Shown piece after piece: positions 1,805 through 64,000 of a stretch of 64,000 bases of DNA; the first letter of the stretch is position 1; every line of letters begins with the position of its first letter. A model generated the notes under the pieces. That model was not told the DNA's origin. It did no database searches and saw only the letters and a program-made list of their open reading frames with translations. The position numbers and the translations under genes were made by a program. The stretch is from Eledone cirrhosa (lineage: Eukaryota), in contig OZ024764.1 in the NCBI GenBank assembly GCA_964016885.1, positions 24,924,001-24,988,000 on the forward strand. Reading direction: 5' to 3'.

Positions 1805-1987
1805 GTATGTATATACATATATATGTATATATATACATATATATATATATGTATATATATACATATATATATATATATATGTATATGTGTGAATGAAGTA
1901 ATTCCGTCGGAAAGGTCCAGGAAAAAAGAGTGCTCTATGAAGGCTACAGAGCTTATTAGTTATGTAATAAACAACATAAGATAATTA

Positions 1988-2047
1988 TTTCATTTACCAG
2001 TGGTTTTTTGAAAGCAAACAAATTTGCTTTCAGTCATCAGAATGAAA
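1988..2047 (-). ncRNA. Hammerhead family B, mirror copy with core mutation GAAA->AAAA (probably inactive)
   Basis: Reverse complement of 2448-2507 except ctttcaaAaaacc in place of ctttcaaGaaacc (catalytic G12 lost). Confidence 0.7.
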
Positions 2048-2234
2048 AAATCCTGGTGTATTTATTGACATTGGATTTTAAAAACAAAAATATAATATAA
2101 TTGTTTCTACTTTTGGCACAGGGCCAGCAATCACCCAGTGTATTACTGGTACTTTATTTTATCGACCCCGTAAGGATGAAAGGCAAAGTCAACCTAATGA
2201 AAGTGAGACTGGAGAAAGCCTCACTTTCATTATC

Positions 2235-2395
2235 GTTGAATTGGCAGTATCGGTAGAGGGTTGGATGTCATGTTTTCTAGCATAGTTACGTCCCTTTACA
2301 GTCTGAGTTCAAATCCCGCCGAGGTTAACTTTGCCTTTCATCCTTACGGGGTCGATAAAATTAAGTACCAGTAATGTACTGGAAGTAGAAACAAT
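2235..2395 (+). mobile_element. tRNA-derived SINE with Nin/Deu-like core
   Basis: A-box-like tggcagtatcgg, B-box gagttcaaatccc, core gcctttcatccttacggggtcgataaa and tail gtagaaacaat; same family as 26316, 28470 and 32440. Confidence 0.8.
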
Positions 2396-2447
2396 TATAT
2401 TATATTTTTGTTTTTAAAATCCACTGTCAATAAATACACCAGGATTT

Positions 2448-2507
2448 TTTCATTCTGATGACTGAAAGCAAATTTGTTTGCTTTCAAGAAACCACTGGTA
2501 AATGAAA
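2448..2507 (+). ncRNA. Type-I hammerhead ribozyme (family B)
   Basis: UUUCAUU-CUGAUGA-C-UGAAAGCAAA-uuug-UUUGCUUUCA-A-GAAA-CC-acu-GG-UA/AAUGAAA: 7-bp stem I, 10-bp stem II, short stem III, GUA triplet. Confidence 0.85.
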
Positions 2508-2532
2508 TAATTATCTTATGTTGTTTATTACA

Positions 2533-2570
<38 letters not shown>

Positions 2571-2659: not shown

Positions 2660-3035
2660 ACTTGATCACCATCACCAACCAGTCTGTCGAGCGCCGAATG
2701 ACGCCTCTGGTCAGAGCACGTTGCTGTTTTAGCCATATGATGTCGCCATCCCACTGGCTGGGCGGGCAGGCCGTAGGTCTAAAGTCTGTCTTAAGCCAGA
2801 AGGGTCATTTGGCCGGTGCTTTTCCCGGTTTCATGGCGTGAAGTGACTGAGAGTACAAGACTCCCCCTGGACAGGACGCAGGGTTAAACCTACCTCCAAC
2901 TATTGCTGGTACTCAATTTCAGCTGAGTAAGCTGGAGCAACGTGAATAAAGTGTCACATCACCTGGTCTGAGAATTGAACTCACAACCTTTCGATTGCAA
3001 GGCCAAGGCTCTAACCACTAAGCCCTGTGCCTTCA
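2660..3035 (-). mobile_element. tRNA-derived SINE (second family) with V/Meta-like central domain
   Basis: Minus strand head ggcttagtggttagagc...gtgagttcaattctc, followed by cctgcgtcctgtccagggggagt...gaaaccggga. Confidence 0.7.
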
Positions 3036-3310: not shown

Positions 3311-3633
3311 GTGTGTGTGGGGGGGGGGGGCATATTGTCTATATGTACATTTATATGTACATATATATGTACATATAAATGTATATATATATATATATAT
3401 ATATGAATATATATATATTTCGTTTCTGAATTTGTTTAGCAAGATTCTTTATCTGAAATCGTGTGTTGAAACCGATATTGTTATACTTTGGGAGGGTCAT
3501 GTTGCCAATAAGAAACACACGCACCAGTTGCTTTCACTTCAATTTAATTTAATATATATTTATAAATTTACAAATTTATAAATTTCTGGTTGGTTGGTTG
3601 GTTCCACAACCAGATAGTTGTTTATATATATAT

Positions 3634-3678
3634 AGTCATAGTTCTTTCGTCACACACTCTGTGACCTCTTCAGTGACT
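3634..3678 (-). ncRNA. Minimal hammerhead ribozyme (family C), mirror copy
   Basis: Exact reverse complement of 3793-3837. Confidence 0.7.
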
Positions 3679-3792
3679 GGGGATTTCTTTCTTCGTTTCT
3701 GTGCCTTTCCTTTCTTCTATCCTACGCCATTTTGTTCAAAATGGCGTAGGATAGAAGAAAGGAAAGGCACAGAAACGAAGAAAGAAATCCCC

Positions 3793-3837
3793 AGTCACTG
3801 AAGAGGTCACAGAGTGTGTGACGAAAGAACTATGACT
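3793..3837 (+). ncRNA. Minimal type-I hammerhead ribozyme (family C)
   Basis: AGUCA-CUGAAGA-G-GUCACA-gagug-UGUGAC-GAAA-G-aa-C-UA/UGACU: 5-bp stem I, one extra G before a 6-bp stem II, vestigial stem III, CUA triplet. Confidence 0.7.
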
Positions 3838-4269
3838 ATATATATATAAACAACTATCTGGTTGTGGAACCAACCAACCAACCAGAAATTTATAAATTTG
3901 TAAATTTATAAATATATATTAAATTAAATTGAAGTGAAAGCAACTGGTGCGTGTGTTTCTTATTGGCAACATGACCCTCCCAAAGTATAACAATATATAT
4001 ATAAATATATATGTATAAACGGAAAAAGTACAGCCGTACTAAGAGTATATATGTATATATATATACATATATATATACATATATATATATATGTATATAT
4101 ATAACCCATGCTAGCGTGGAAAATGGACGTTAAACGAAGATGATGATGATGATGATGATGATATATATATACATATATATGTATATATATATATATATAT
4201 GTTTATATATACATATATATGTATATATATACATATATATATATGTTTATATATACATAGAGAGAGATA

Positions 4270-4851: not shown

Positions 4852-5035
4852 ACGACCACTTTGCAGTGGAATGATAGGGACCCCAGTCCTATCATCTCAT
4901 TTCTACAGCTGAGTAAACTGGAGCAATGTGAAATAAAGTGTCTTGCTCAAGGAAACAACACATCACCCAGTCTGAGAATTGAACTCACAACCTTTTGATT
5001 GCAAGGTCAATGCTCTAAACACTAAGCCATGTGCC
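4852..5035 (-). mobile_element. tRNA-derived SINE (RTE-tailed family), 5' part
   Basis: Minus strand ggcacatggcttagtg...gagttcaattctc...tttccttgagcaagacacttt; near-identical to the head of 26598-26936. Confidence 0.8.
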
Positions 5036-5098
5036 GATATATACATACATATATATATATCTATATATATATATATATATATAGTATTAATATAGATG

Positions 5099-5149
5099 AG
5101 ATTCTACAGGACTAGAACTGTTTCATTCATTAGAAATCATCAGGAATCT
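5099..5149 (-). ncRNA. Type-I hammerhead ribozyme (family D), inverted pLTR copy
   Basis: AGAUUC-CUGAUGA-U-UUC-uaau-GAA-U-GAAA-CAG-uucuaguc-CUG-UA/GAAUCU. Confidence 0.8.
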
Positions 5150-5234
5150 GGGTATCAAAAAATAAAAATGGTATTTATAGGTCTCTACAAGTGGTAGGAG
5201 AGGGTGGGGAGTGGGATGGGTGTAAGTCATTGGT

Positions 5235-7096
5235 TTCCAGGCCTACTTAAATGCCGAATTAAGGAAAATAAAAAAATTCCCCATTCTTTATGTCTCCTCC
5301 GATAAAACCAAAAACGTTTATGAGGTAGACCCACAGACCTACAATAAGCTGGCAAAAAATACCATCACGACCACCTACAAAAAGGTAATAGAGAGGGCAC
5401 TGACTGAGACAAACGCGGCCGGAAAAGAAATCGCCAAGTCCCTTAAATTACATGACCGAACAGAACCTTTAAGGGTAAAGACCCCGCACTTTACCCTGAA
5501 GGACCATAAGGGAAATTTCCTCAACAAACCATCAGTCAGACTTATCAACCCCACTCGTTCTGACATCGGCTCTATCAGTAAGAAGATCCTGGATAGAGTT
5601 CTACCATCATTGCGGGCAGCCTCACCACTTCCACTCTGGAGTAGAACATCTGAGGCAATATCATGGTTCCAAGAATTACCCGATAAACACCACACTCGCT
5701 TCCTGCAACTCGACATAGAAAACTACTATGCCTCTATCTCGGAGCCCCTCCTGAAGGACGCAATTAACTTTGCCAGGAATTTTACCACCATTACCGATGC
5801 TGAGCAGGTTGTTATCCTCCACGCTCGTAAGACCTTTCTATACCACGATGGATCTTACTGGATCAACAAGAAATCTCAGACCCCATTTGACGTTAGCATG
5901 GGGGCGAGTGACTCGGCTGAAATTAGCGACCTTGTGGGCCTGTACATCCTACATAACCTGAAGAACCTCTTTACCGGCCTAACGGGAGGTTTATACCGAG
6001 ACGACGGCCTCTTCGCCCTGCATAAGGTTAGCCCCAGAACCACCGATGGGTTTCGGAAAAACTTAAGCTCTTTCTTCTCTAATCTAGGATTTAGTATAAC
6101 TATAGATTCTAATTTGACTAGGGCCAACTTCTTAGATGTCACTCTCGACCTAGATACTTCCCTCTATTACCCGTACCACAAACCTAACGAGTCCCTTAAA
6201 TATATTAATGTTAATTCAAACCACCCCCAAAACATCACTGATAACCTAGTAAAAAGCGTCTCTATTAGAATATCTGGCCTCTCCGCCAACAAAGATACTT
6301 TTAATGCATCTGCCTCCTACTACAATGACGCCCTCTCCCGTAGCGGATTTAAAGATAAGATAACTTACCTAGAAACCACCGCAAGATTGCAGAGGAGGAA
6401 TAGACATAGGCAGATTAGCTGGTACAACCCTCCCTTCAATAGAGAGGTATCTACTCCGATAGCTAGGATTTTCTTCACTTTACTGAAATTACACTTCCCC
6501 ATACAACATAGGTACTACACCATCTTTAATAAGAACACTATAAGACTGTTTAACTCCACCACACCTAACCTAGCTAGGAATATAGCCAACCACAATTCTA
6601 AATTAAATAAGCCAACCACCTCCGAAACCAATCCCCGGACTGGGGCTCTATGTAATTGCCTAAATAAGGATGCATGCCCACTTGAAAACAAATGCCTCAC
6701 AAATGACATCGTATACAAATGCGATGTCATCTCAGGCACCGAGGATTGCAAAAAAACTTACATCGGCATGACCTCCAACAACTTTAAGACCCGTTGGTAT
6801 GCCCATACCCACTCCTTCAGTAGACCGGATGAATCAATTCAGACAACACTCGCCTCCTACGTTTGGGACCTCAAAAGGAACTCCACCCCCTTCACGCTTA
6901 AAGGAAAATACTCCAGAAAGCGCGCTCTTACAACGGAGGACACAAGGGCTGCGACCTTTGTATTTCAGAGAGCTACGAAATTTTATTCGCCAAGGGCCCG
7001 CTACTGAACAAACTCTCTGAACACTGCCCGAACTGCATGCACAAGAACTTTGCAACTTTCAAACACTTTAAGCCAGTGTTAAAGCCCGATGGCTAA
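5235..7096 (+). pseudogene. PLE reverse transcriptase + GIY-YIG endonuclease (Naiad-like), 5'-truncated, frameshifted near 6903 and near 7020
   Basis: The frame is open from 5235 (FQAYLN...SSDKTKNVY). RT motifs VRLINP, LDIENYYASI, MGASDSAEI, GLYRDDGL and NFLDVTL are present, then WYNPPF, a CxCx5Cx5C finger (CNCLNKDACPLENKC) and VYKC...YIGMT...FKTRW..H. After the frameshift come CDLC..E and LLNK. Confidence 0.9.
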
Positions 7097-7512: not shown

Positions 7513-7714
7513 ATATATATATGTGTATGTATGTGTATGTATGTATGTATGTACGTGTATGTATGTATGTATGTTTATGTATATATGTATGTGGTTATAT
7601 ATATGTATATGTATATATATGTATATATACATATATGTATATATATATGTATATATATATATATATGTGTGTGTGTATGTGTGTATGTGTGTGTATATAT
7701 ATATATATATACAT

Positions 7715-8185
7715 ATAAATTGAAACAAAATGAAAACGAAATTTCATTTCTCACTCTTAGTATGGCACTTACTTAAATGTAAGTATGCATGTATACGTAC
7801 ATACATATATGTATACAGACGTACAGTAGCATGCACATATATATATATATATATACATATATACATACATATGCATACAGGTACACATACATATATGCAC
7901 GTATCAGTTTAGCGGCGCTAACAAGCTTGAAACTAGTACATCGTTCCTGTGTCAGTGTTGAACAAAAAGGTGACGTGGTTGCCTTAACACCATATGGCAT
8001 AAATTCAGGCTGTTCAGTTTGTTTACAAACGAACAAAGCGACGTTAGCGCCGCTAAACTGATACGTGCATATATGTATGTGTACCTGTATGCATATGTAT
8101 GTATATATGTATATATATATATATATATATGTGCATGCTACTGTACGTCTGTATACATATATGTATGTACGTATACATGCATACT

Positions 8186-8190
<5 letters not shown>
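7715..8190 (+). mobile_element. Retrozyme-like HHR element, copy 2 (5'-truncated within the HHR, with ~205-bp inverted arm)
   Basis: Segment 7917-8190 matches the minus strand of 939-1215. Segment 7715-7920 is an inverted arm joined at a gcta microhomology. The copy lies in (TA)n within the PLE1 3' region. Confidence 0.8.
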
Positions 8191-8228
<38 letters not shown>

Positions 8229-16186: not shown

Positions 16187-17025
16187 GTATATATATGTAT
16201 ATATATATGTGTATGTATATGTATATGTATATGTATTAATTTTGATTTCTATTTGCATATAATTATATTCTGCTATTGATAAAATACAATATCTGTTTTA
16301 TTTATTATATACCTAATTAACATATACTATAGAAATTAATATATAATTTTTAATTTAGTTAACCTATAATTTATATTCTACTACCGATGTAATACTTTAT
16401 TTGTTTTTTCCCTATTACTAAATTCATTTCCTAATATTGATACCATAACGTTATTAACTTTAATTTAGTTATACTATAATTAATACTCTACTACTATTTA
16501 ACTTCAAAATTCTGCTTCAAATATTATAAATCTAACTAATTTACACCTTAGAAATCAATATGTTAACTATCTTTAGTTTAGTTAACATATAATTAATGGT
16601 ATACTTATTTATTTTGAAATGCATAAATTTTGCCTTATTTCTTGTATTTCCTAACACTGAAACTATGTAAAAACATACATTGGATCCAGATACAGATAAT
16701 ATTCTATGTTTCTTGAAACATATATTTACTATAATCCCCTTCTCCAACCCCCCCCTTTCCCCCATACTATTATCATCTGTGTTTGTAAGCGTGTATGTAT
16801 GAATATATATGTAGGTAGGTGTATATATGTTTGGGTATTTATATCTGAATATAAAAATACATATATGCGCATGCAAATAAGAATGTAAGATTGTGTGTAT
16901 ATATATGTGTGTATGTATATATATGTGTGTATATATGCATGTGTATATATATGTGTATGTGTATGTGTGTATGTGTATATATATGTGTATATGTGTATAT
17001 GTGTGTGGGCGTGTATGTGTGTATG

Positions 17026-17064
<39 letters not shown>

Positions 17065-17315
17065 GTGTGTATGTATGTATGTATATATGTGTGTGTATAT
17101 ATATGTATGTCTCTCTATTTATATGTCTATCTTCGTATCTATGTGGGTATATGTGTGTATGTGCATGTATGCACATGTATGTGTTTACGTGTATATGTGT
17201 GTATGTGTATGTATGTGCGTGTGCGCACACACATATATATGTGAGTGTGTGTGTGTGTGTGTGTGTATGTGTATATATATATATATATCTATGTGTGTAT
17301 ATATGTCTATATTCG

Positions 17316-17362
<47 letters not shown>

Positions 17363-17580
17363 TATTATTATAATATAACTTATGTGTATGTGTGTATATG
17401 TGAGGGTGTGTATATGTATATATATGTGTATATATATGTGTAAAAAAATATATATATGTATGTCTGTTTTTTGTGTGTGTGTATATATATGTATGTGTAT
17501 ATATATGTGTATGTGTGTGTTTGTATGTTTTGTATGTGTGTTTATGGTTGTATGTGTGTGTGGGTGTATATATATAAATG

Positions 17581-17611
<31 letters not shown>

Positions 17612-17942
17612 GTGTATATATATCTCTATTAATGCGTGTATATATGTATATGTATATGCCTTTTTCTTTGTATGTCTGAGTTGTGTGAGGGTGTAGTGGT
17701 GTTTGTATGTATATACGCATATATGGATGCGTATGTATTTGTATATATGAGTATATGTAAGTGCGTATGTATGTATGAATATATATCTAATTCTATGTAT
17801 GAGTATATATGTGTGTGTATATATGTTGTGTGTGTATGTATGTATGTGTCTATGTGTGTATATATATGTATATATGTGTGTGTATGTATGTATGTATGTG
17901 TATGTATGTACATATATGTCTATGTATGTGTGTATGTATATG

Positions 17943-17989
<47 letters not shown>

Positions 17990-18179
17990 TTATTTTATAT
18001 ATATGTGTGTGTGTGTATGTGTGTGTGTATATATATATCTTTATATATGTGTATGTGTATGTTCGTGTAGGTATATGTGTGTGTATGACTATATATGTAT
18101 GTATGTATGTGTGTATGTATGTATATGTATGTGTGTGTACATGTATGTATGTGTATGTATGTATATGTGTGTATATGTG

Positions 18180-18214
<35 letters not shown>

Positions 18215-18517
18215 ATATATATATATATATATATGTATATGTATCTCTATTTGTATATATATATGTATATAGGTATATACCTTTTTCTTTGTATGTCTGA
18301 GTTGTGTGAGAGTGTAGTGGTGTTTGTATGTATATACCGATATATGGATGCGTAAGTATTTGTGTGTATGTATATATGTATATCTGTATGAATTTGCGTC
18401 TATATATAGGTATGTATGTGTATATCTGTATGTATATAAGTATGTATGTGTATGTATATGTGCGTGTATGTGTGTATATATATGTGTGTCTATATAGTAT
18501 GTGTGATTATATGTGTA

Positions 18518-18578
<61 letters not shown>

Positions 18579-19313
18579 TGTGTGTATATGTGTGTATGTG
18601 TGTATATGTATATGTTTATATATGTGTGTGTATGTATGTTCTAAGTGTGGATGTGTGTATATGTATGTATGTGTTTATATATATGTATATATATATATAT
18701 ATATATGTATGTATATATATATATATATATATTTTCTTGATATATTTCTTTTTTCTTTTTATTTTCTTAGTTTATAGATACATCTATAATAAGCAGTCTG
18801 CCCAAACCGTTGAATACTGACCTCTTCCCCCCTCCCACCTAATTTCTGTATCTTGATCTAAATGTGTGTGACAGTGTTTATGTGAGTGAATTAATATCCA
18901 TGTGCTTATGATATTATATCCACACATATATATATGTGAGTGGGGGTGTGTGTGTGTTTGTATGTTCGTAATTATGTGTATGTTTATGCATATACGCGCG
19001 CGTGTGTGTGATTGTACGGATATGTGTGAGTATGAGAATATGTGTATACACTTATTTCATATTTATGTGTCTATACGCATCTTATCTGTGCATTATAAAC
19101 TTACAGAGACATTAACCTTGAAATTTTGTATTTGCATCCATCCTTTTGGTATGCGTATACATGTTGAGCATACATTTTTGTAAAATATGTGTAAGGGTAG
19201 TTACATGTATATACACACACCGAACTGCATAAAACCTTTTGTATTTTCATTGGTCAATTTTGTTCCCAAACGGACCTGAAATTTTGAATTGTTGTTATTA
19301 TCAATAAATATAT

Positions 19314-19720: not shown

Positions 19721-20296
19721 GTGTATGTATATGTATGTATATGAATATATTTTATATATGTGTGTGTGTTTTTATGTGTGTATATGTGTTTGTGTGTGTG
19801 TTTATGGTTGCGCGTAAGTGTGTGAGTGAGTATGTTTTTTTGTGAATGTGTCTGTTGATTTTTGGCATATAGTTGATTAGTTTAAGAGAAGTTCGAAGAT
19901 AATTGTAAGATATGCACTCAGTATTTTGAATCTGTCTACAGAATTCTCTAGACCTTTGTCACTTGGTAGAACCTTAATGATTTTAGCATTTGAAGAATCT
20001 CCCTTTTCTTTAATTCTATCGACCATGACTGACCCCCCACTGATTTTATAGACATCTGTTAGCTTAAGAGAAACTTAATGACAAAGTATGGTATGCCATC
20101 CGGAACCTGTTTATAGAATTCTGTCTGCCCTTGTTACTCTAAAAACATAAATAAATAAAAATAAACTATAGCTTTGTAGAATTAGCTTTTAATGAATTCC
20201 CTTTTCTATCAACCAATGACCTACACCCATCCCACTCCCCACCCTCTCCTACCACTTGTAGAGACCTATAAATACCATACTTATTTTTTGATACCC

Positions 20297-20347
20297 AGAT
20301 TCCTGATGATTTCTAATGAATGAAACAGTTCTAGTTCTGTAGAATCT
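20297..20347 (+). ncRNA. Type-I hammerhead ribozyme (family D) in terminal pLTR
   Basis: AGAUUC-CUGAUGA-U-UUC-uaau-GAA-U-GAAA-CAG-uucuaguu-CUG-UA/GAAUCU; TATAAATA lies about 30 nt upstream (20267). Confidence 0.8.
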
Positions 20348-20429
20348 CATCTATATTAATACTTTTATACTCTGCTATGTATTGAGTACCTTACTTACTG
20401 TGGTTACCTCCGATTCAACCCGGAATAAC

Positions 20430-20487
<58 letters not shown>

Positions 20488-20721: not shown

Positions 20722-23035
20722 ATCATCATAATCAGTTCGAGCTTGCTCGGCTTTCTACGACACGCTTCCTCCATCCATCTCTGTCTCTCATAGCGTTTGC
20801 CAGTTCTTCCGCAGTGCATCCAGTATCGTCCTCAAGTTGCTTGACGTATGTCTTCTTGGGACGACCAGCGTTTCTTGCTCCATGAGATGGACTCCATAAC
20901 AACACATCACCTGCTATTTCTTCCTTGCGGTGCCAACAATGGCCAGCAAGTCTGAGTCTCTGCCCATGTGTTGACCTGCTGATAGGTGGTATATTGCCAT
21001 AGAGATCCTTATTTGTTGGGTGTTCCCTCCAAGACACATTTAAAGCAGCGCAGAGCATACGTGTGTATGCCCCGTCTAACTTTTTCTCCAGTTTCGAAGT
21101 TAGCGTCCAAGTGACAGAGCCATAAACCTGCACAGATTCCACAGCAGCTCTGAAGAAACTCCTTTTCAGTTTGGCCGGCAGGTTTGATTTCTTTATATTT
21201 TTCATTGCATTCAGTGCTCCCCAGGCTTTTCCCAGTCTGATGTTAACATCATGTTCTGTGGAGGCGATATAGCTACCCAGGTATTTGAAGTCGTCAACTT
21301 GCTTGATTATATCGCCGTTTAGACTTCGCATACCAACTGAGGAGTCTTGGTTCACGCAAATATATTCTGTTTTGCCTACGTTGACATAGAGTCTGATTTC
21401 CTTTGCAACTGATTCGATGCTGTGAAGTAGTGATGTTGCATCCTTAAGGTAGTCAGCGAGGACCGCTAAATCATCCGCATAGTCAGCATCGGTGATTTTC
21501 TGAGCTGCATGACGTCTACACTTTCACTTTGTGAGAGTGAAACCAAGCTCTAAGTTTTCGTCCAAGGCTTTTGTCAATACATAGTCGAGGCAGATAATAA
21601 AAATAAATGGTGCAAGAGTATCCCCTTGGAGTATTCCTGCAATGATGTCAAAGAAGTTGGTATCTCCATCAGGTGAGCGCACCATTGCGCGGGTGTTTTT
21701 ATATAACATCATGATGGCATTTACTGTTTCCCTTGGCAAGCCGTAGGCTAGTAGTATCTCTCTCATCCTCCCACGATGGATGGAATTGAATGCTTTTGAA
21801 AAGTCAATAAACAGGAGAGTTGCTGGGAGGTTTTGGGCTTTTACGCCTTCCAAGATACGCCGAATTGTAAGTATTTGCCCTGATGTTGATCTGTTGGTGC
21901 GGAAGCCATTTTGGTTTTTTCTCAGCAAGGGGTCAATGACAGGTCTTATTCTGTCAAACAGCATGAGATTGTATATCTTTGCGGCAATTGCCATTAGTGT
22001 TTTGCCACGGTAGTTTTTAGCCATTCCAAGATCGCCCTTTTTGGGAAAAGGGAGTATACATCCCTCAGACCATTTGTCTATGGGGTCTTGATTATAGACA
22101 CTATTACACAACTCTAGTAGGATTGGGTGAAATTCAGGTACCTTCCACACTTTAGCCGGGATCTCGTCGAGTCCGCACGAATTTCCGTTACCAATACTTT
22201 TCACTGCCTTCTGTAGTTCCTCCAAAGTGAAAGGACCTTTCTGTATTTGGTGTTCCTCTGTAAAAACTGGTATTATTTCTTCTTCGATGATCTGTGGTGC
22301 CTTGCCAAGTAGGTTTTGAAAATGTTGTTGCCACAGTTTTAAACCTTCATCCTGGCTGGAGGCTTTCAGTTTGGCTCTGTCACTACTTTTTCTGCCACTA
22401 ATTTCATTGACAGTTTTCCAGGCTTCAGCAGACTTCTTATTGCTGACAGGACTCGAGATATGATTGATCTTTCTCTGCATGTATTCGGCTTGCTCAATTT
22501 CATACTCACTTTTCAGTGCTGTACAAGCAGCACTGAAGTTACTAATGTTTTCTGGAGATCGTTGAGTGTCTTTCAATTCTGCAGCTTTTCGCAACTTTTG
22601 CGCTTTTGGCGTATCCTCTCTGTTTCCCAGGGTTTTCGTTTTTTAATCTTGGGTTTTAAAGGGATGGTGTCGACCGCTGCCTCTTTGAATGCCATTTGAA
22701 AGTGGTTAAATGTAGAATTTGAAAATTTTGCTGGCGCAGAGTCTTGTAGGACAGCAAATCAGTTGCTCAGTTGGGTTACAAAGGTTTTGTAAGTCTCAGG
22801 ATTGGTATTCAGAACTAGCCAGTTGTAAGGAGTAACATTTGCATATGTCAGGCCACTCTCGAGTGCTACTGGTAACATGTAACTGGTAACATGTAACCTG
22901 TCGCATGGTCGGGTCGTCGTTGACTAAACCGGCAACCCCATCAAGTTTACTTGGTGAGGAGGGTGATTTTGGACATCCTGCAGGACAAAAACAAAACCTG
23001 ACAAAAGGCTCATAAGAGTCAACGGCCATCCAAAA
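20722..23035 (-). mobile_element. RTE-clade LINE (second family), RT frameshifted near 21525, endonuclease apparently deleted
   Basis: ORFs 21524-22594 (PFPKKGD, NYRG, QNGFR, FIDFSKAF, GILQGDTLAPFIF) and 20732-21355 (FKYLGS, LAGHC, GRPKKT). DADYADDL lies near 21470 and the (gat)n-like tail at 20722. Segment 22850-23035 is tentatively 5' UTR. Confidence 0.85.
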
Positions 23036-23075: not shown

Positions 23076-23406
23076 CTTGGTAGCCTTGGTAGGCAATCTG
23101 TCTAGGAGAGGGACCACTCTGATTTCAAAGCCGGGCGGACAGAGCTCTTTGGCCCTTATCGGCAATCTGTTAAACCAATCCTGACTGGGTTAAATGACGA
23201 CATTGGTAAGCAGGATGTCGTATCAGTAGATAAAGCAATGATCAAGTAACTATGAATTTGGTTCATTCTACTAGTGGCAAGGCGATCATATCAACTATTG
23301 TTGGATGTTTCGGTGACGCACAAATGCTCTAATACCGAGTACTGCTTTCACTTGTATGGAGTAGCGACCGCAAGTGTATATCCAGCTATTGAAAGCTAAA
23401 TATGAC

Positions 23407-23450
<44 letters not shown>

Positions 23451-23487
23451 GTCATATTTAGCTTTCAATACAACTGTTGTGTAGCCA

Positions 23488-25558: not shown

Positions 25559-25765
25559 CAGTTTACTCAGCTGTAGAAATTAGATGATAGGGACTGGGGT
25601 CCACTGCAAAGTGGTCGTAGAGGTGCCACGGCAAAAAAGCACCCAGCACTCACTGTAAATGAGGTTGGTGTTAGGAAGGGCATCCAGCTGTAGAAATCAA
25701 GCCAGAATCAGTTCCTGTCCCACCCTTGCAAGCAGGGAAAAGCGGACGTAAAATGATGATGATGA
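25559..25765 (+). mobile_element. 3' half of RTE-tailed SINE
   Basis: cagtttactcagctgtagaaat...gtcccacccttgcaagcagggaaaagcggacgtaaaa(tga)n. Confidence 0.8.
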
Positions 25766-26597: not shown

Positions 26598-26936
26598 CAT
26601 TTTCATTTCATTTCATTTTACGTCCGCTTTTCCCCTGCTTGCTGGGGTGTGACAGGAACTGATTCTGGCTTGATTTCTACAGCTGGAGGCCCTTCCTAAC
26701 ACCAACCTCATTTAGATTGAGTGCTGGGTGCTTTTTTGCCGTGGCACCTCCACGACCACTTTGCAGTGGAATGATATGGACCCCAGTCCCTATCATCTCA
26801 TTTCTACAGCTGAGTAAACTGGAGCAATGTGAAATAAAGTGTCTTGCTCAAGGAAACAACACATCACACGGTGTGAGAATTGAACTCACAACATTTCGAT
26901 TGCAAGGCCAATGCTCTAACCACTAAGCCATACGTC
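26598..26936 (-). mobile_element. Full-length tRNA SINE with RTE-derived 3' tail
   Basis: Head ggcttagtggttagagc/gagttcaattctc, box tccttgagcaagacacttt, tail gcaagcaggggaaaagcggacgtaaaatg. Confidence 0.85.
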
Positions 26937-55490: not shown

Positions 55491-55599
55491 TTCTCTAACA
55501 TTCTCAAAACACTTAGCAATCACAATAGAGATTATAACAAGGTAGCAGTCATATATTGGAGCTGATTCTTTCTCTAACATTCTCAAAGCACTGAGCATA

Positions 55600-58500
55600 T
55601 ATCTTAGACATATCTATCACCACTGTGGTACACATACTACACTGATTTATAGACAAATCTATCACCACTTTGGTACACTTACTACACTGTTATATAGACA
55701 TATCTATTACCAATGTGGTACACTTAATACACTGTTATCTAGACATGTCTATCACCACTGTGGTACACTTACTACACTGTTATATAGACATATCTATCAC
55801 CACTGTGGTACACTTACTACACTGTTATATAGATATATCTATCACCATGTGGTACACTTACTACACTTTTATATAGATATATCTATCACCACTGTGGTAC
55901 ACATACTACACTGTTTTATAGACAAATCTATCACCACTGTGGTACACTTACTACACTGTTATATAGACATATCTATTACCAATGTGGTACACTTAATACA
56001 CTGTTATCTAGACATGTCTATCACCACTGTGGTACACTTACTACACTGTTATCTAGACATGTCTATCACCACTGTGGTACACTTAATACACTGTTATATA
56101 GACATGTCTATCACCATTGTGGTACACTTATTACACTGTTATATAGACATGTCTATCACCACTGTGGTACACTTACTACACTGTTATATAGACATATCTA
56201 TCACCACTGTGGTACACTTACTACACTGTTATATAGATATATCTATCACCACTGTGGTACACTTACTACACTGTTATATAGTCATATCTATTACTACTGT
56301 GGTACACTTACTACACTGTTATATAGACATGTCTATCACCACTGTGGGACATTACTACACTGTTATATAGACATGTCTATCACCACTGTGGTACACTTGC
56401 TACACTGTTATCTAGACATGTCTATCACCACTGTGGTACACTTACTACACTTTTATATAGATATCACCACTCTGTTACACTTACTAAACTGTTATATAGA
56501 CATCTATCACCACTGTGGTACACTTACTACACTGTTATATAGACATATCTATCACCACTGTGGTAAACTTACTACACTTTTATATAGACATCACTACTCT
56601 GGTACACTTACTACACTGTTATATAGACATATCTTTTACCACTGTGGTACACTTACTACACTGTTATCTAGACATATCTATCACCACTGTGGTAAACTTA
56701 CTACACTTTTATATAGATATCACTACTCTGGTACACGTACTACACTGTTATATAGACATCTATCACCACTGTGGTACACTTACTACACTGTTATATAGTC
56801 ATATCTATTACCACTGTGGTACACTTACTACACTGTTATATAGACATGTCTATCAGCACTGTGGTTCACTTACTACACTGTTATATAGACATATCTATCA
56901 CCACTGTGGTACACTTACTACACTGTTATCTAGACATGTCTATCACCACTGTGGTACACTTACTACACTGTTATATAGTCATATCTATCACCATTGTGGT
57001 ACACTTACTACACTGTTATATAGATATATCTATCACCACTGTGGTACACTTACTACACTGTTATATAGACATATCTATCACCACTGTGGTACACTTACTA
57101 CACTGTTATATAGTCATATCTATTACCACTGTGGTACACTTACTACACTGTTATATAGTCATGTCTATCACCACTGTGGTACACTTACTACACTGTTATA
57201 TAGACATATCTGTTACCACTGTGGTACACTTACTACACTGTTGTATAGACATATCTATCACCACTGAGGCACACTTGCTACACTGTTATCTAGACATATC
57301 TATCACCACTGTGGTACACTTACTACACTGTAATATAGACATCTATCCCCACTGTGGTGCACTTACTACACTGTTATATAGATATATCTATCACCATTGT
57401 GGTACACATACTACACTGTTATATAGACATATCTATCACCACTGTGGTACACTTACTACACTGTTATATAAACATATCTATCACTACTGTGGTACACTTA
57501 CCACACTGTTATATAGACATGTCTATCACCACTGTGGTACACTTACTACACTGTTATATAGACATGTCTATCACCACTGTGGTACACTTACTACACTGTT
57601 ATATAAACATATCTATCACTACTGTGGTACACTTACCACACTGTTATATAGACATGTCTATCACCACTCTGGTACACTTACTACACTGTTATATAGACAT
57701 CTATCACCACTGTGGTACACTTACTACACTGTTATATAGACATCTATCATCACAGTGGTACACTTACTACACTGTTACGTAGACATATCTATCACCACTG
57801 TGGTAGATTTACTACACAGTTATATAGTCATATCTTTTACCACTGTGGTACACTTACTACACAATTATATAGACATGTCTATCACCACTCTGGTAAACTT
57901 ACTACACTGTTATATAGACATGTCTATCACCACTGTGGTACACTTACCACACTGTTTTATAGTCATATATATCACCACTGTGGTACACTTACCACACTGT
58001 TATCTAGACATGTCTATCACCATTGTGGTACACTTACTACACTGTTATATAGATATATCTATCACCACTGTGGTACACTTACTACACTGTTATATAGACA
58101 TATCTATCACCATTGTGGTACATTTACTACACTGTTATATAGTCATATCTATTACCACTCTGGTACACTTACTACACTGTTATATAGACAAATCTATCAC
58201 CACTGTGGTGCACTTACTACACTCTTATATAGTAATATCCAGCACCACTGTGGTACACTTACTACACTGTTATATAGACATGTCTATCACCACTGTGGTA
58301 CACTTACTACACTGTTATATAGTCATATCTATTACCAATGTGGTACACTTACTACACTGTTATATAGACATATCTATCACCACTGTGGTACACTTACTAC
58401 ACTGTTATATAGATATCACAACTCTGGTACACTTACTACACTTTTATATAGACATATCTATCATCACTGTGGTACACTTGCTACACTGTTATCTAGACAT

Positions 58501-61500
58501 GTCTATCACCACTGTGGTACACTTACTACACTTTTATATAGGTATCACCACTCTGGTACACTTATTACACTGTTATATAGACATCTATCACCACTGTGGT
58601 ACACTTACTACATTGTTACATAGACATATCTATCACCACTGTGGTACACTTACTACACTGTTATATAGACATGTCTATCACCACCATGGTACACTTACTA
58701 CACTGTTATATAGACATATCTATCCCCACTGTGGTACACTTACTACACTGTTACATAGACATATCTATCACCACTGTGGTACACTTACTACACTGTTATC
58801 TAGACATGTCTATCACTGCTTTTGTACACTTACTACACTTTTATATAGATATCACCACTGTGGTACATTTACTACACTGTAATATAGACATATCTATCAC
58901 CACTGTGGTACACCTACTACACTGTTATATAGTCATATCTTTTACCACTGTGGTACACTTACTACACTGTTATATAGACATGTCTATCACCACTGTGGTT
59001 CACTTACTACACTGTTATATAGACATATCTATCACCACTGTGGTACACTTACCAAACTGTTATATAGTCATATCTATCACCACTGTGGTACACTTACTAC
59101 ACTGTTATATAGACATATCTATCACCATTGTGGTACACTTACTACACTGTTATATAGACATGTCTATCACCCTGTGGTACACTTACTACACTGTCATATA
59201 GACATATCTATCACCACTGGTACACTTACTACACTGTTATATAGACATATATATCACAACTGTGGTACACTTGCTACACTGTTATCTAGACATGTATATC
59301 ACTGCTGTTGTACACTTAATACACTTTTATATAGATATCACTACTCTGGTACACTTACTACACTGTTATATAGACATCAATCACCACTGTCGTACACTTA
59401 CTACATTGTTATATAGTCATATCTATTACCACTGTGGTACACTTACTACACTGTTATATAGACATATCTATTACCACTGTGTTACACTTACTACACTATT
59501 ATATAGACATATATATCACCACTGTGGTACACTTACTACACTGTTATATAGATATATCTATCACCACTGTGGTACACTTATTACACCTTAATATAGATAT
59601 ATCTATCACCACTGTGGTACACTTGCTACACTGTTATATAGACATATCTATCACTGCTGTGGTACACTTACTACATTGTTATATAGACATTTCTCTCACC
59701 AATGTGGTACACTTACTACACTGTTATATAGTCATATCTATTACCACTGTGGTACACTTACTACACTGTTATATAGACATGTCTATCACGACCGTGGTAC
59801 ACTTACTACACTGTTATATAGACATATCTATCACCACTGTGGTACATTTACTACACTGTTATATAGACATATCTATTACGACTGTGGTACACTTACTACA
59901 CTGTTATATAGACATGTCTATCACCACTGTGGTACACTTACCACACTGTTATATAGTCATATCTATCACCACTGTGGTACACTTACTACACTGTTATATA
60001 GATATATCTATCACCACTGTGGTACACTTACTACACTGTTATACAGACATATCTATCACCATTGGTACACTTACTACTCTGTTATATAGACATATATATC
60101 ACCACTGTGGTACACTTGCTACGCTGTTATATAGACATATCTATCACCACTGTGGTACACTTACTACACTGTTATAGAGACATGTCTATCACCACTGTGG
60201 TACACTTGCTACACTGTTATCTAGACATATCTATTACCAATGTGGTACACTTACCACACTTTTATATAGATATCACCATTCTGGTACACTTACTACAATG
60301 TTATATAGTCATATCTATTACCACTCTGGTACACTTACTACACAGTTATATAGACATATCTATCACCACTGTGGTACACTTACTACACTGTTATATAGAA
60401 ATATCTATCACCACTGTGGTACACTTACTACACTGTCATATAGACAAGGCTATCATCACTGTGGTACACTTGCTACACTGTTATCTAGACATGTCTATCA
60501 CCACTGTGTACACTTACTACACTTTTATATAGATATCACCACTCTGGTATACTTACTACACTGTTATATAGACATCTATCACCATTGTGGTACACTTACT
60601 ACACTGTTATATAGACATATCTATCACCATTGTGTTACACTTACTACAATGTTATATAGACATTTCTATCACCACCGTGGTACACTTACTGCACTGTTAT
60701 ATAGACATATCTATCACCACTGTGGTACACTTACTACACTGTTATATAGACATATCTATCACCACTGTGGTACATTTACTACACTGTAATATGGACATAT
60801 CTCTCACCACTGTGGTACACTTACTACACTGTGATATAGTCATATATTTTACCACTGTGGTACACTTACTACACTATTATATAGACATGTCTATCACCAC
60901 TGTGGTACACTTACTACACTGTTATATAGACATATCTATAATCACTGTGCCACACTTACAACACTGTCATATAGTCATATCTATCACCATTGTGGTACAC
61001 TTACTACACTGTTATATAGATATTTCTATCACCACTGTGGTACACTTACTACACTGTAATATAGACATATGTATCACTGCTGTGGTACACTTACTACACT
61101 GTTATCTAGACATATATATCACCACTGTGGTACAATTGCTACACTGTTATCTAGACATATCTATCACCACTGTGGTACACTTACTACACTTTTGTATAGA
61201 TATCACCACTCTGGTACATTTACTACACTGTTATAGAGACATCTATTACCACTGTGGTACAATTACTACACTGTTATATAGACATATCTATCACCACTGT
61301 GGTACACTTACTACACTGTTATATAGTTATATCTATTACCACTGTGGTACACTTACCACACTGTTATATAGTCATATCTATTACTACTGTGGTACACTTA
61401 CTACACTGTTATATATACATACCTATCACCACTGTGGTACACATACTACACTGTTATATAGACATGTCTATCACCACTGTGGTACACTTGCTACACTGTT

Positions 61501-64000
61501 ATATAGACATTCTATCACCACTGTGGTACACTTACTACACTGCAATATAGACATATCTATCACTGCTGTGGTATACTTACTACACTGTTATCTAGACATA
61601 TATATCACCACTGGTACACTTACTACACTGTTATATAGACATGTCTATCACCACTGTGGTACACTTACTACACTGTTATATAGACATGTCTATCACCACT
61701 GTAGTACACTTGCTACACTGTTATATAGACATATCTATCACCACTGTTTTACACTCACTACACTTTTATGTAGATATCACCACTGTGGTACACTTACTAC
61801 ACTGTAATATAGTCATATCTATTACCAATGTGGTACACTTACTACACTGTTATATGGACATATTTATCTCACCACTGTGGTACACTTACTACACTGTTAT
61901 ATAGTCATATCTATTACCACTGTGGTACACTTACTACACTGTTATATAGACATATCTATCACCACTGTGGTACACTTACCACACTGTTATATAGTCATAT
62001 CTATCACCTCTGTGGTACAGTTACTACACCGTTATATAGATATATCTATCACCACTGTGGTACATTTACTACACTGCTATATAGACATATCTATCACCAC
62101 TGTGGTACACTTACTACACTGTTATATAGACATGTCTATCACCACTGTGGTACACTTACTACACTGTTATCTAGATATGTCTATCCCCACTGTGGTACAC
62201 TTACTACAATGTTATATAGAAATATCTATCAGCACTGTGGTACAATTACTACACTGTTATATAGACATGTCAATCACCACTGTGGTACACTTATTACACT
62301 GTTATATAGAAATATCTATCACCACTGTGGTACACCTACTACACTGTAATATAGACATATGTATCACTGCTGTGGTACACTTACTACACTGTTATCTAGA
62401 CATATATATCACCACTGGTTCACTTACTACACTGTTATATAGACATATATATCACCACTGTGGTACACTTACCTCACTGTTATATAGACATATCTATCAC
62501 CACTGTGGTACACTTACTACACAGTTATATAGACATGTCTATCACCACTATGGTATACTTACTACACTGTTATATAGTAATATCTATTACCACTCTGGTA
62601 AACTTACTACACTGTTATATAGACATCTATCACCACCGTGGTACACTTACTACACTGTTATATAGTCATATCTATTACCACTCTGGTACACTTACTACAC
62701 TGTTATATAGACAAATCTATCACCGTTATGGTACGCTTACTACACTGTTATATAGAAATATCTATCACCATTATGGTACACTTACTACACTGTTATATAG
62801 ACATGTCTATCATTACTGTGGTACACATGCTACACTGTTATCTAGACATGACTATCACCACTGTGGTACACTTACTACACTTTTCTATAGATATCACCAC
62901 TCTGGTACACTTACTACACTGTTATATAGTCATATCTATTACCATTGTGGTACACTTACTACACTGTTATATAGATATATCTATCACCACTGTGGTACAC
63001 TTATTACACTGTTATATAGTCATATCTATTACCACTGTGGTACAATTACTACACTGTTATATAGACATGTCTATCACCACTGTGGTACACTTACTACACT
63101 GTTATATAGACATATCTATCACCACCGTGGTACACTTACTACACTGTTATATAGACATATCTATCACCACTGTGGTATACTTACTACACTGTTATATAGA
63201 CATGTCTATCACCACTGTGCTACACTTACTACACTGTAATATAGACATATCTATCACTGCTGTGGTACACTTACTACACTGTTCTCTAGACATATATATC
63301 ACCACTGGTACACTTACTACACTGTTATATAGATATATCTATCACCACTGTGGTACACTTACTACACTGTTATATAGACATATCTATCACCACTGTGGTA
63401 CACTTACTACTCTGTTATATAGACATATATATCACCGCTGTGGTACACTTACTACACTGTTATATAGATATCACCACTGTGGTACACTTACTACACTGTT
63501 ATATAGACATCTATCACCACTGTGGTACACCTACTACACTGTTACATAGAAATACCTATCACCACTGTGGTACACTTGCTACACTGTTATCTAGACATGT
63601 CTATCACTGCTGTTGTACACTTACTACACTTTTATATAGATATCACCACTCTGGTACACTTACTATACTGTTATATAGACATCTATCACCACTGTGGTAC
63701 ACTTACTACATTGTTATATAGTCATATCTATTACCACTGTGGTACACTTACTACACTGTTATATAGACATATCTATCACCACTGTGGTACACTTACTCCA
63801 CTGTAATATAGACATATCTATCACTGCTGTGGTACACTTACTACACTGTTATCTAGACATATATATCACCACTGGTACACTTACTACACTGTTATATACA
63901 CATATATATCACAACTGTGGTACACTTAATAAACTGCTACATAGACATGTCTATCACCACTGTGGTACACTTAATACACTGCTATATAGACATGTCTATC
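55600..64000. repeat. 45-bp minisatellite/satellite, >8.4 kb, runs off the window
   Basis: Unit tatcaccactgtggtacacttactacactgttatatagacatatc with recurrent short deletion variants. Confidence 0.95.

Follow-up and report, generated by a model that had tools for sequence, protein, structure and literature searches.

The stretch at 1888–2538 of the window, by which we mean the whole 64-kb piece of DNA analyzed here, carries two head-to-head copies of a tRNA-type SINE, each joined at its tail to a module with a hammerhead motif. This arrangement raises the question of whether a SINE has acquired the 3′ end of a Penelope-like element (PLE) and become a multi-copy chimeric family, as the first-pass annotation had proposed, or whether the joined form was made once, at this site. 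Our analysis favors the second answer, and the locus is very probably a local PLE product with no SINE-pLTR family behind it. The SINE seems to have been carried along rather than to have driven the event, and the unit probably does not transpose as a family.

Public reads were used to judge the abundance and the alleles of the parts. Four of the 23 listed runs (X1, X5, X7, and X21) were aligned to 1888–2321 at 85% likeness; X21 is a raw-read run and X7 carries a different organism code. No RNA run was among those listed, and runs covering only a small share of the sequence were set aside. From the resulting tables, the analysis drew on 40 of the 172 variant rows, 15 of the 778 joints, 24 of the 1321 loose ends, and 24 of the 214,020 contig pieces, with the pieces chosen as the longest or as lying at a joint.

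Layout of the inverted arms

By sequence inspection, 1888–2538 sits between two (TA)n-rich tracts at 1484–1887 and 2539–2656, each a likely target site, and any target-site duplication would be masked by the repeats. The inverted arms, 1957–2195 on the minus strand and 2322–2538 on the plus strand, have the SINE-module junction in common, and the earlier description of a Pol III SINE running into a hammerhead-containing module, with the same junction in the inverted arm, is borne out by the arm alignment. On the left side, a 3′ extension or tail at 1888–1956 (minus strand) has no right-arm partner and belongs to the multi-copy module family by its depth in X21. It is followed by a hammerhead end-piece at 1957–2097 (minus strand), identified by the arm alignment as likely a PLE pLTR, with its hammerhead at 2047–1988, and then by a SINE copy at 2098–2195 (minus strand), for which alignment to three other window copies showed the 3′ 98 nt only, including a 22-nt stretch at 2113–2134 and an ATTAT tail. 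The left arm is thus missing the SINE head, and its 3′ end extends 69 nt beyond that of the right arm. A non-SINE hairpin at 2195–2232, defined by its fold and read depth, occupies the center. On the right side, alignments and a motif scan delimit a nearly full-length SINE copy at 2234–2398 (plus strand) with a 22-nt deletion after 2382 and an ATTAT tail, and the sequence and the arm alignment delimit the right hammerhead end-piece at 2399–2538 (plus strand), which ends at a short palindrome before the (TA)n repeats. Within it, a type I hammerhead motif at 2448–2507 (plus strand) is predicted from folding and shuffles.

The two arms align in two blocks. Left 2195–2135 and right 2322–2382 share 61 nt with four mismatches, all in the SINE part (L2190/R2327, L2155/R2362, L2141/R2376, and L2140/R2377). 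After a 22-nt gap, in which L2134–2113 has no counterpart in the right arm, left 2112–1957 and right 2383–2538 share 156 nt with two mismatches (L2071/R2424 and L2007/R2488). The arm differences first reported, namely four substitutions, a 22-nt indel, and two module-side mismatches, therefore hold, except that 16 of the 156 positions earlier assigned to the module belong to the 3′ end of the SINE.

Three further copies of this SINE are present in the window at about 26.3, 28.5, and 32.5 kb. All three keep the 22-nt stretch, stop at the same end point, and have ATTAT-type tails and unrelated flanks, and the hammerhead module is absent from all three. Because these copies keep the 22 nt and share the end point, the junction is an ordinary SINE tail, and the indel, which is real, reflects the loss of normal SINE sequence from the right arm. 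The right SINE contains a T4 run at 2273 between an A-box-like motif (2242) and a B box (2307); the A-box-like motif recurs in all four window copies and the B box in three of the four, and Rfam returned no tRNA match on the head of the 2234–2398 SINE. With its high copy number and ATTAT-type simple tails, the element presumably resembles the octopus tRNA-derived SINEs OK, OR1, and OR2. Those SINEs likewise carry A and B boxes, occur in very many copies, and have an ATT-type tail and flanking duplications, and on the evidence of this SINE the window would fit an octopus genome. Tail-to-head tandems of the SINE, with a joint from 2097 to 2240, occur in all four runs among the 15 of 778 joints listed, supported by 72 contigs in X1, 65 in X7, 5 in X5, and 125 reads in X21. 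Another SINE family of the window, whose head is tRNA-like and whose tail is of the (GAT)n type, lies at 2920–3031, 4906–5035, 25559–25756, and 26613–26930; it has an Rfam tRNA match at 26873–26930 and forms a tail-to-tail inverted pair at 25.6–26.8 kb.

The first-pass annotation had also placed a 13-bp snap-back hairpin at 2195–2232, and this feature proved to be robust. Its stem (2195–2207/2220–2232) consists of 13 perfect pairs around a 12-nt spacer, with a folding energy of −18.5 kcal/mol and a z score of −5.85, and none of 200 shuffles was as stable. Each SINE copy is preceded by the identical 13 nt of the stem, which are not SINE sequence; in the left arm these 13 nt pass straight into the body of the SINE, bypassing its head. 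No second copy of the hairpin was found within the 64-kb window. Over 2203–2217, the depth of the spacer is about 1 in X21, 12.1 in X1, 15.2 in X7, and 0 in X5, which is single-copy depth with coverage in three of the four aligned runs. Low-depth coverage in X7 as well, the run with the different organism code, would fit an older core. Elsewhere in the window, the sequence at 23387–23470 forms another inverted repeat, a short one whose arms span at least 32 nt on either side of an AT-rich center.

In the right module, the predicted hammerhead has a stem I of 7 bp, a stem II of 10 bp, and a stem III of 3–4 bp, with the core motifs CUGAUGA at 2455 and GAAA at 2488 and a predicted cut after GUA at 2500. 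The core at 2455–2500 belongs to the minimum-energy fold of 2425–2538, and among 5000 shuffles of the right arm a relaxed hammerhead appeared in one and a hammerhead with at least 19 pairs in none. The left hammerhead carries a G12 to A change at 2007, where 1602 of 1644 X21 reads have the intact letter. The listed family variants within the ribozyme fall at N7, in loop II, at position 10.1, and at two stem sites where they produce G-U pairs, a placement that fits selection on the fold. On these grounds, the type I hammerhead fold predicted for the module is taken as real. A search of Rfam returned no hammerhead over the module, and its microRNA, snoRNA, and sRNA matches were set aside as below gathering scores. 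A protein search with a 46-codon antisense frame over the left module, confined to candidates of 25–81 residues, gave no match, and comparison of the module with the other modules of the window gave neither a match nor a link to a PLE reading frame within the window. PLE pLTRs are marked by minimal type I hammerheads, according to PMC4209133, and the architecture of the module suggests that it is likely a PLE end-piece.

Three other hammerhead families are present in the window (3673/3798, 5143/20303, and 1223). The first forms a palindrome at 3416–3996 with 260 of 260 positions paired, a 2-nt spacer, hammerheads at 3673 (minus strand) and 3798 (plus strand), and a 59-nt extension of the left arm; this palindrome represents a PLE-type insertion from a different family and is very young. 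At 5085–7007, an inverted module of the second family (5143, minus strand) abuts a 593-codon PLE-like frame at 5226–7007. The frame has a weak GIY-YIG match (E 0.00074, below the Pfam cut-off), and its nearest atlas clusters carry the HTH_animal, GIY-YIG, and RVT_1 families. Another module of the second family lies at about 20210–20430 (hammerhead 20303, plus strand). The third family (1223, minus strand) flanks the PLE-type frame on both sides, at 940–1490 and 7710–8200, in duplicated segments, some direct and some inverted, that have been rearranged and take in microsatellite DNA. The window further contains a disrupted LINE reverse transcriptase (RVT_1, minus strand) at 20735–22642 and, at about 55500–64000, a long array of degenerate minisatellite repeats of close to 45 nt with short palindromes inside it.

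Abundance and age of the parts

In X21, the module with its 69-nt extension has a depth of about 1370–1870 over 1903–2052, and the left-arm tail has about 1550–1650 over 1903–1962. The module is a dispersed multi-copy family of its own, present in all four aligned runs, in agreement with the initial view that it is multi-copy. It had no match in a metagenome collection, one that would not be expected to contain this animal. The SINE reaches a depth of about 62,000 at its head and 17,000–19,000 at its 3′ end in the same run.

The joined SINE-module form was found only at this locus among the window copies and the contig pieces listed. None of the 24 pieces listed of 214,020 crosses the junction at 2097; the SINE-side pieces listed stop at 2095–2097 or within the SINE, and in X1 contig record 3 the module matches over 1988–2097 while the other 264 letters were not aligned as a continuation into the SINE. 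Short contigs of young chimeric copies would miss a list of the longest pieces. The X21 depth falls from about 1380 at 2023–2052 to 562 at 2068–2082, a drop to be read with the bias that X21 molecules end at AATT sites, including the one at 2099 at the junction. Many X21 molecules end at 2099, which at first suggested a natural SINE end; this reading was dropped, since the site is AATT and probably a restriction cut of the library; the ends at 1983–1986 likewise coincide with an AATT site. On these data, a small SINE-module family is unlikely.

We then compared the ages of the parts. The arm-to-arm excess of substitutions in the SINE is not significant alone, with p values from 0.05 to 0.35 depending on the split; Fisher's test gave 0.054 for 4/61 vs 2/156 and 0.19 for 4/77 vs 2/140. 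For comparison with the families, a change was called private-like when 85% or more of the X21 reads disagree with the window letter, with the right-arm site 2362 judged from the window copies. There are eight such changes in 264 nt of SINE and two in 350 nt of module (p = 0.023, or 0.036 with looser counts), a comparison in which the G+C content of the SINE (35–47%, against 25% for the module) inflates its apparent age and the X21 SINE read alleles pool several subfamilies. Both deletions lie within SINE sequence. By these counts, the SINE parts appear to be of greater age than the modules, and for this reason they are likely derived from two separately aged copies. No derived allele is common to both arms in the 77-nt SINE overlap. 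At three of the four differing sites, both letters are common among SINE reads, with the right-arm letter in 75%, 72%, and 22% of them.

The modules give a different picture. At eight of the nine listed module sites in 1957–2095 where the family is split at 32–61%, the arms agree, indicating that the two modules come from one haplotype group; at the ninth, 2071/2424, the right-arm letter is found in 305 of 550 X21 reads. Judged from their sequences, the modules look like near-identical siblings. Homogenization of two old arms by conversion in the module only was rejected, as no shared listed module allele is private: among the 40 of 172 variant rows listed, the eight shared module alleles differ from only 32–61% of family reads. 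Given that the members of a single chimeric family would diverge evenly along their length, such a family is disfavored. The proposal that the arms were copied from two templates is supported in part, in that the SINE parts likely have separate histories, but not in its original form, in which both arms were members of one SINE-HHR family.

Origin of the locus

The explanation that we prefer, and to which we give about an even chance, is a single PLE insertion with an inverted SINE pair of greater age as its passenger, to which two end-piece cDNAs became joined. It is preferred because it covers all the features with the fewest events. The layout, the multi-copy module, the ordinary SINE tails at both junctions, and the low-copy hairpin are observed, whereas the steps below are a proposed route, and neither a donor locus nor an empty site came to light in the sequences analyzed. 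A head-to-head SINE pair with the hairpin would already have been present and would have aged, gaining substitutions and the two deletions. A PLE endonuclease would then have nicked the (TA)n tract on both strands, each nick priming reverse transcription of pLTR RNA, with one cDNA begun at an outer start and so carrying the tail and the other at an inner start. The AT-rich 5′ end of the module matches the ATTAT tail of the SINE, and at this match one cDNA may have run into the SINE pair, which either remained at the site as DNA or was itself copied off a host transcript. The first cDNA, now ending in the other SINE tail, would finally have annealed to the second cDNA.

The X21 depths across the locus support this layout, with about 1370–1870 for the module, about 1 for the hairpin, and 17,000–19,000 for the SINE 3′ end. 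PMC3846280 offers a precedent among PLEs for an inverted pLTR, a one-sided tail, junction palindromes, and unrelated DNA between pLTRs, and inverted 5′-truncated PLE end-pieces with captured DNA are also described in PMC8557442. In vitro, both strands are cut and extended from two start sites at AT-rich targets, as reported in PMC11167929. The neighboring hammerhead palindrome at 3416–3996 has the same build and no SINE.

A possible but considerably less probable origin is that one chimeric template was folded back. A pLTR would first have inserted into the AT-rich tail of one SINE, a read-through RNA or DNA strand of flank, SINE, and pLTR would have been copied once, and the copy would have primed itself at the hairpin. 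The arms would then have been born identical, and their differences would be due to later mutation, deletion, or conversion with other SINE copies. The presence of the same 13 nt before both SINE copies and the identity of the two junctions suit this origin, as do the lack of a significant arm-to-arm excess and the neighboring palindrome, identical at all 260 positions; self-priming at junction palindromes is also a published inference (PMC3846280). However, fold-back requires four substitutions and two deletions in the SINE against two changes in the 140-nt module (Poisson P of at least four, 0.026). An aged SINE should moreover have left derived alleles shared by the arms, and there are none in 77 nt, an outcome with a probability of 0.10 at 3% divergence, 0.02 at 5%, and 0.46 at 1%.

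It is unlikely that the SINE was inserted into a PLE, with the hairpin arm being PLE sequence and a SINE placed at ATTAT, as a 5-nt duplication, in each arm of a palindrome, either by two insertions or by one insertion followed by conversion. Insertion of this kind would account for the different SINE alleles of the arms; ATTAT flanks the right SINE on both sides, and the left SINE resembles a 5′-truncated insertion. On the other hand, the other three SINE copies have flanking duplications of roughly 9–16 nt by eye, the SINE copies seem to predate the modules instead of postdating them, and the hairpin spacer has single-copy depth instead of module depth, although alignment may fail for a match of only 25 nt.

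More doubtful still is the chimeric family itself, in the form of a young low-copy, non-autonomous family of a tRNA-SINE with a PLE end-piece, transcribed through its T runs and moved by a PLE, of which two members were primed on opposite strands here. It would explain the identical junctions and the intact A-like and B boxes of the right arm, and the arm alleles at three SINE sites and one module site are common family alleles. Up to about 540–560 of the roughly 1400–1650 X21 module reads still align at 2068–2082, which would allow for a minority of chimeric copies, and tRNA-related SINE-like elements with a type I hammerhead are described for schistosomes in PMC2770079 and PMC8490949. Against these points stands the structure of the unit. 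Pol III transcription generally ends at T4–T6 runs. The right module has T5 runs at 2405 and 2411 and a T6 run at 2445, and at these three runs, which separate the ribozyme from the SINE tail, Pol III transcription would probably terminate; the unit has a further T4 run in the SINE head at 2273, and none of the three free SINE bodies holds a T4 run. Its divergence is uneven along the unit, with the eight private-like changes of the SINE against two in the module. The module is missing from the three other SINE copies, none of the 24 pieces listed crosses the junction, and one module copy seems to continue upstream into non-SINE DNA. The proposed multi-copy SINE-HHR family, with a SINE acquiring a PLE 3′ end, is not upheld by these results. 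Were the family real, it would be a SINE parasitizing a PLE and would supply a natural marker by which two-RNA priming is proved for head-to-head PLE insertions.

An assembly or sequencing fold-back artefact is very improbable: AT-rich repeats are known to give rise to artefactual long palindromes and the best public run contains only 0.56 of the sampled words, but the arms differ by six substitutions, two deletions, and the tail, several of these differences are family alleles, and the hairpin spacer is covered in three of the four aligned runs.

Relation to known elements

The closest published counterparts are the endonuclease-positive PLE units (Penelope/Poseidon, Neptune, and Nematis), as described in PMC3846280, PMC8557442, and PMC11167929. 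Head-to-head arms occur in both, and the locus further resembles these units in the 3′ extension of one arm, the central palindrome, the hammerhead of the end-piece, the AT-rich microsatellite flanks, and the unrelated DNA enclosed. An inverted 5′-truncated head-to-head copy, a one-arm extension, a type I hammerhead, and a dispersed end-piece are all present here. The locus differs from the units in the length of its extension, 69 nt against the usual 30–40 nt, and in that the enclosed DNA is an inverted SINE pair.

The hammerhead itself is similar to the minimal hammerheads of metazoan PLE pLTRs, as outlined in PMC4209133. Shared traits are type I topology, a CUGANGA and GAAA core, a long stem II, a short near-palindromic stem III, and many family variants that keep the fold. 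In contrast to these hammerheads, the locus lacks the G10.1–C11.1 pair (C/A here, and U-A in about 61% of family reads), and its left copy has the G12 to A change. Since the two hammerhead copies lie on opposite strands, one transcript would carry no tandem dimer.

Like the schistosome elements (Sm-alpha and Sj-alpha) of PMC2770079 and PMC8490949, the locus joins a tRNA-related SINE-like sequence to a type I hammerhead. Those elements form families of more than 10,000 copies with shown ribozyme activity, whereas the hammerhead at the locus is predicted only, SINE and module are each abundant on their own, their joined form was seen only here among the sequences covered, and T runs interrupt it. 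The locus also resembles the non-LTR retrozymes of animals (bioRxiv 10.64898/2026.07.22.740005) in being non-coding, in its type I hammerhead, and in its relation to PLE pLTRs. Retrozymes are head-to-tail tandem repeats and the locus is an inverted pair; a non-LTR retrozyme was rejected, as the arms are inverted and the window has no third copy. No tRNA-SINE family moved by a PLE was found in the titles and abstract openings searched, and the passages considered from PMC10886601, PMC13282606, 10.1101/596502, and PMC4758252 contain no such case.

The locus is thus best regarded as an ordinary product of a known process, the capture of host sequence between PLE end-pieces, and its value is mechanistic. 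Head-to-head PLE repeats may arise by self-priming on one template (PMC3846280) or by priming from both cut strands, and PMC11167929 shows that both strands are cut and extended in vitro. A genome-wide count of palindromes whose arms differ at alleles segregating in the family, as at 2071/2424, could decide between these modes of priming. The locus also illustrates how a SINE-PLE junction can form through ATTAT microhomology, providing the raw material for Sm-alpha-like elements, and why such junctions usually fail, namely because terminators lie between the promoter and the ribozyme.
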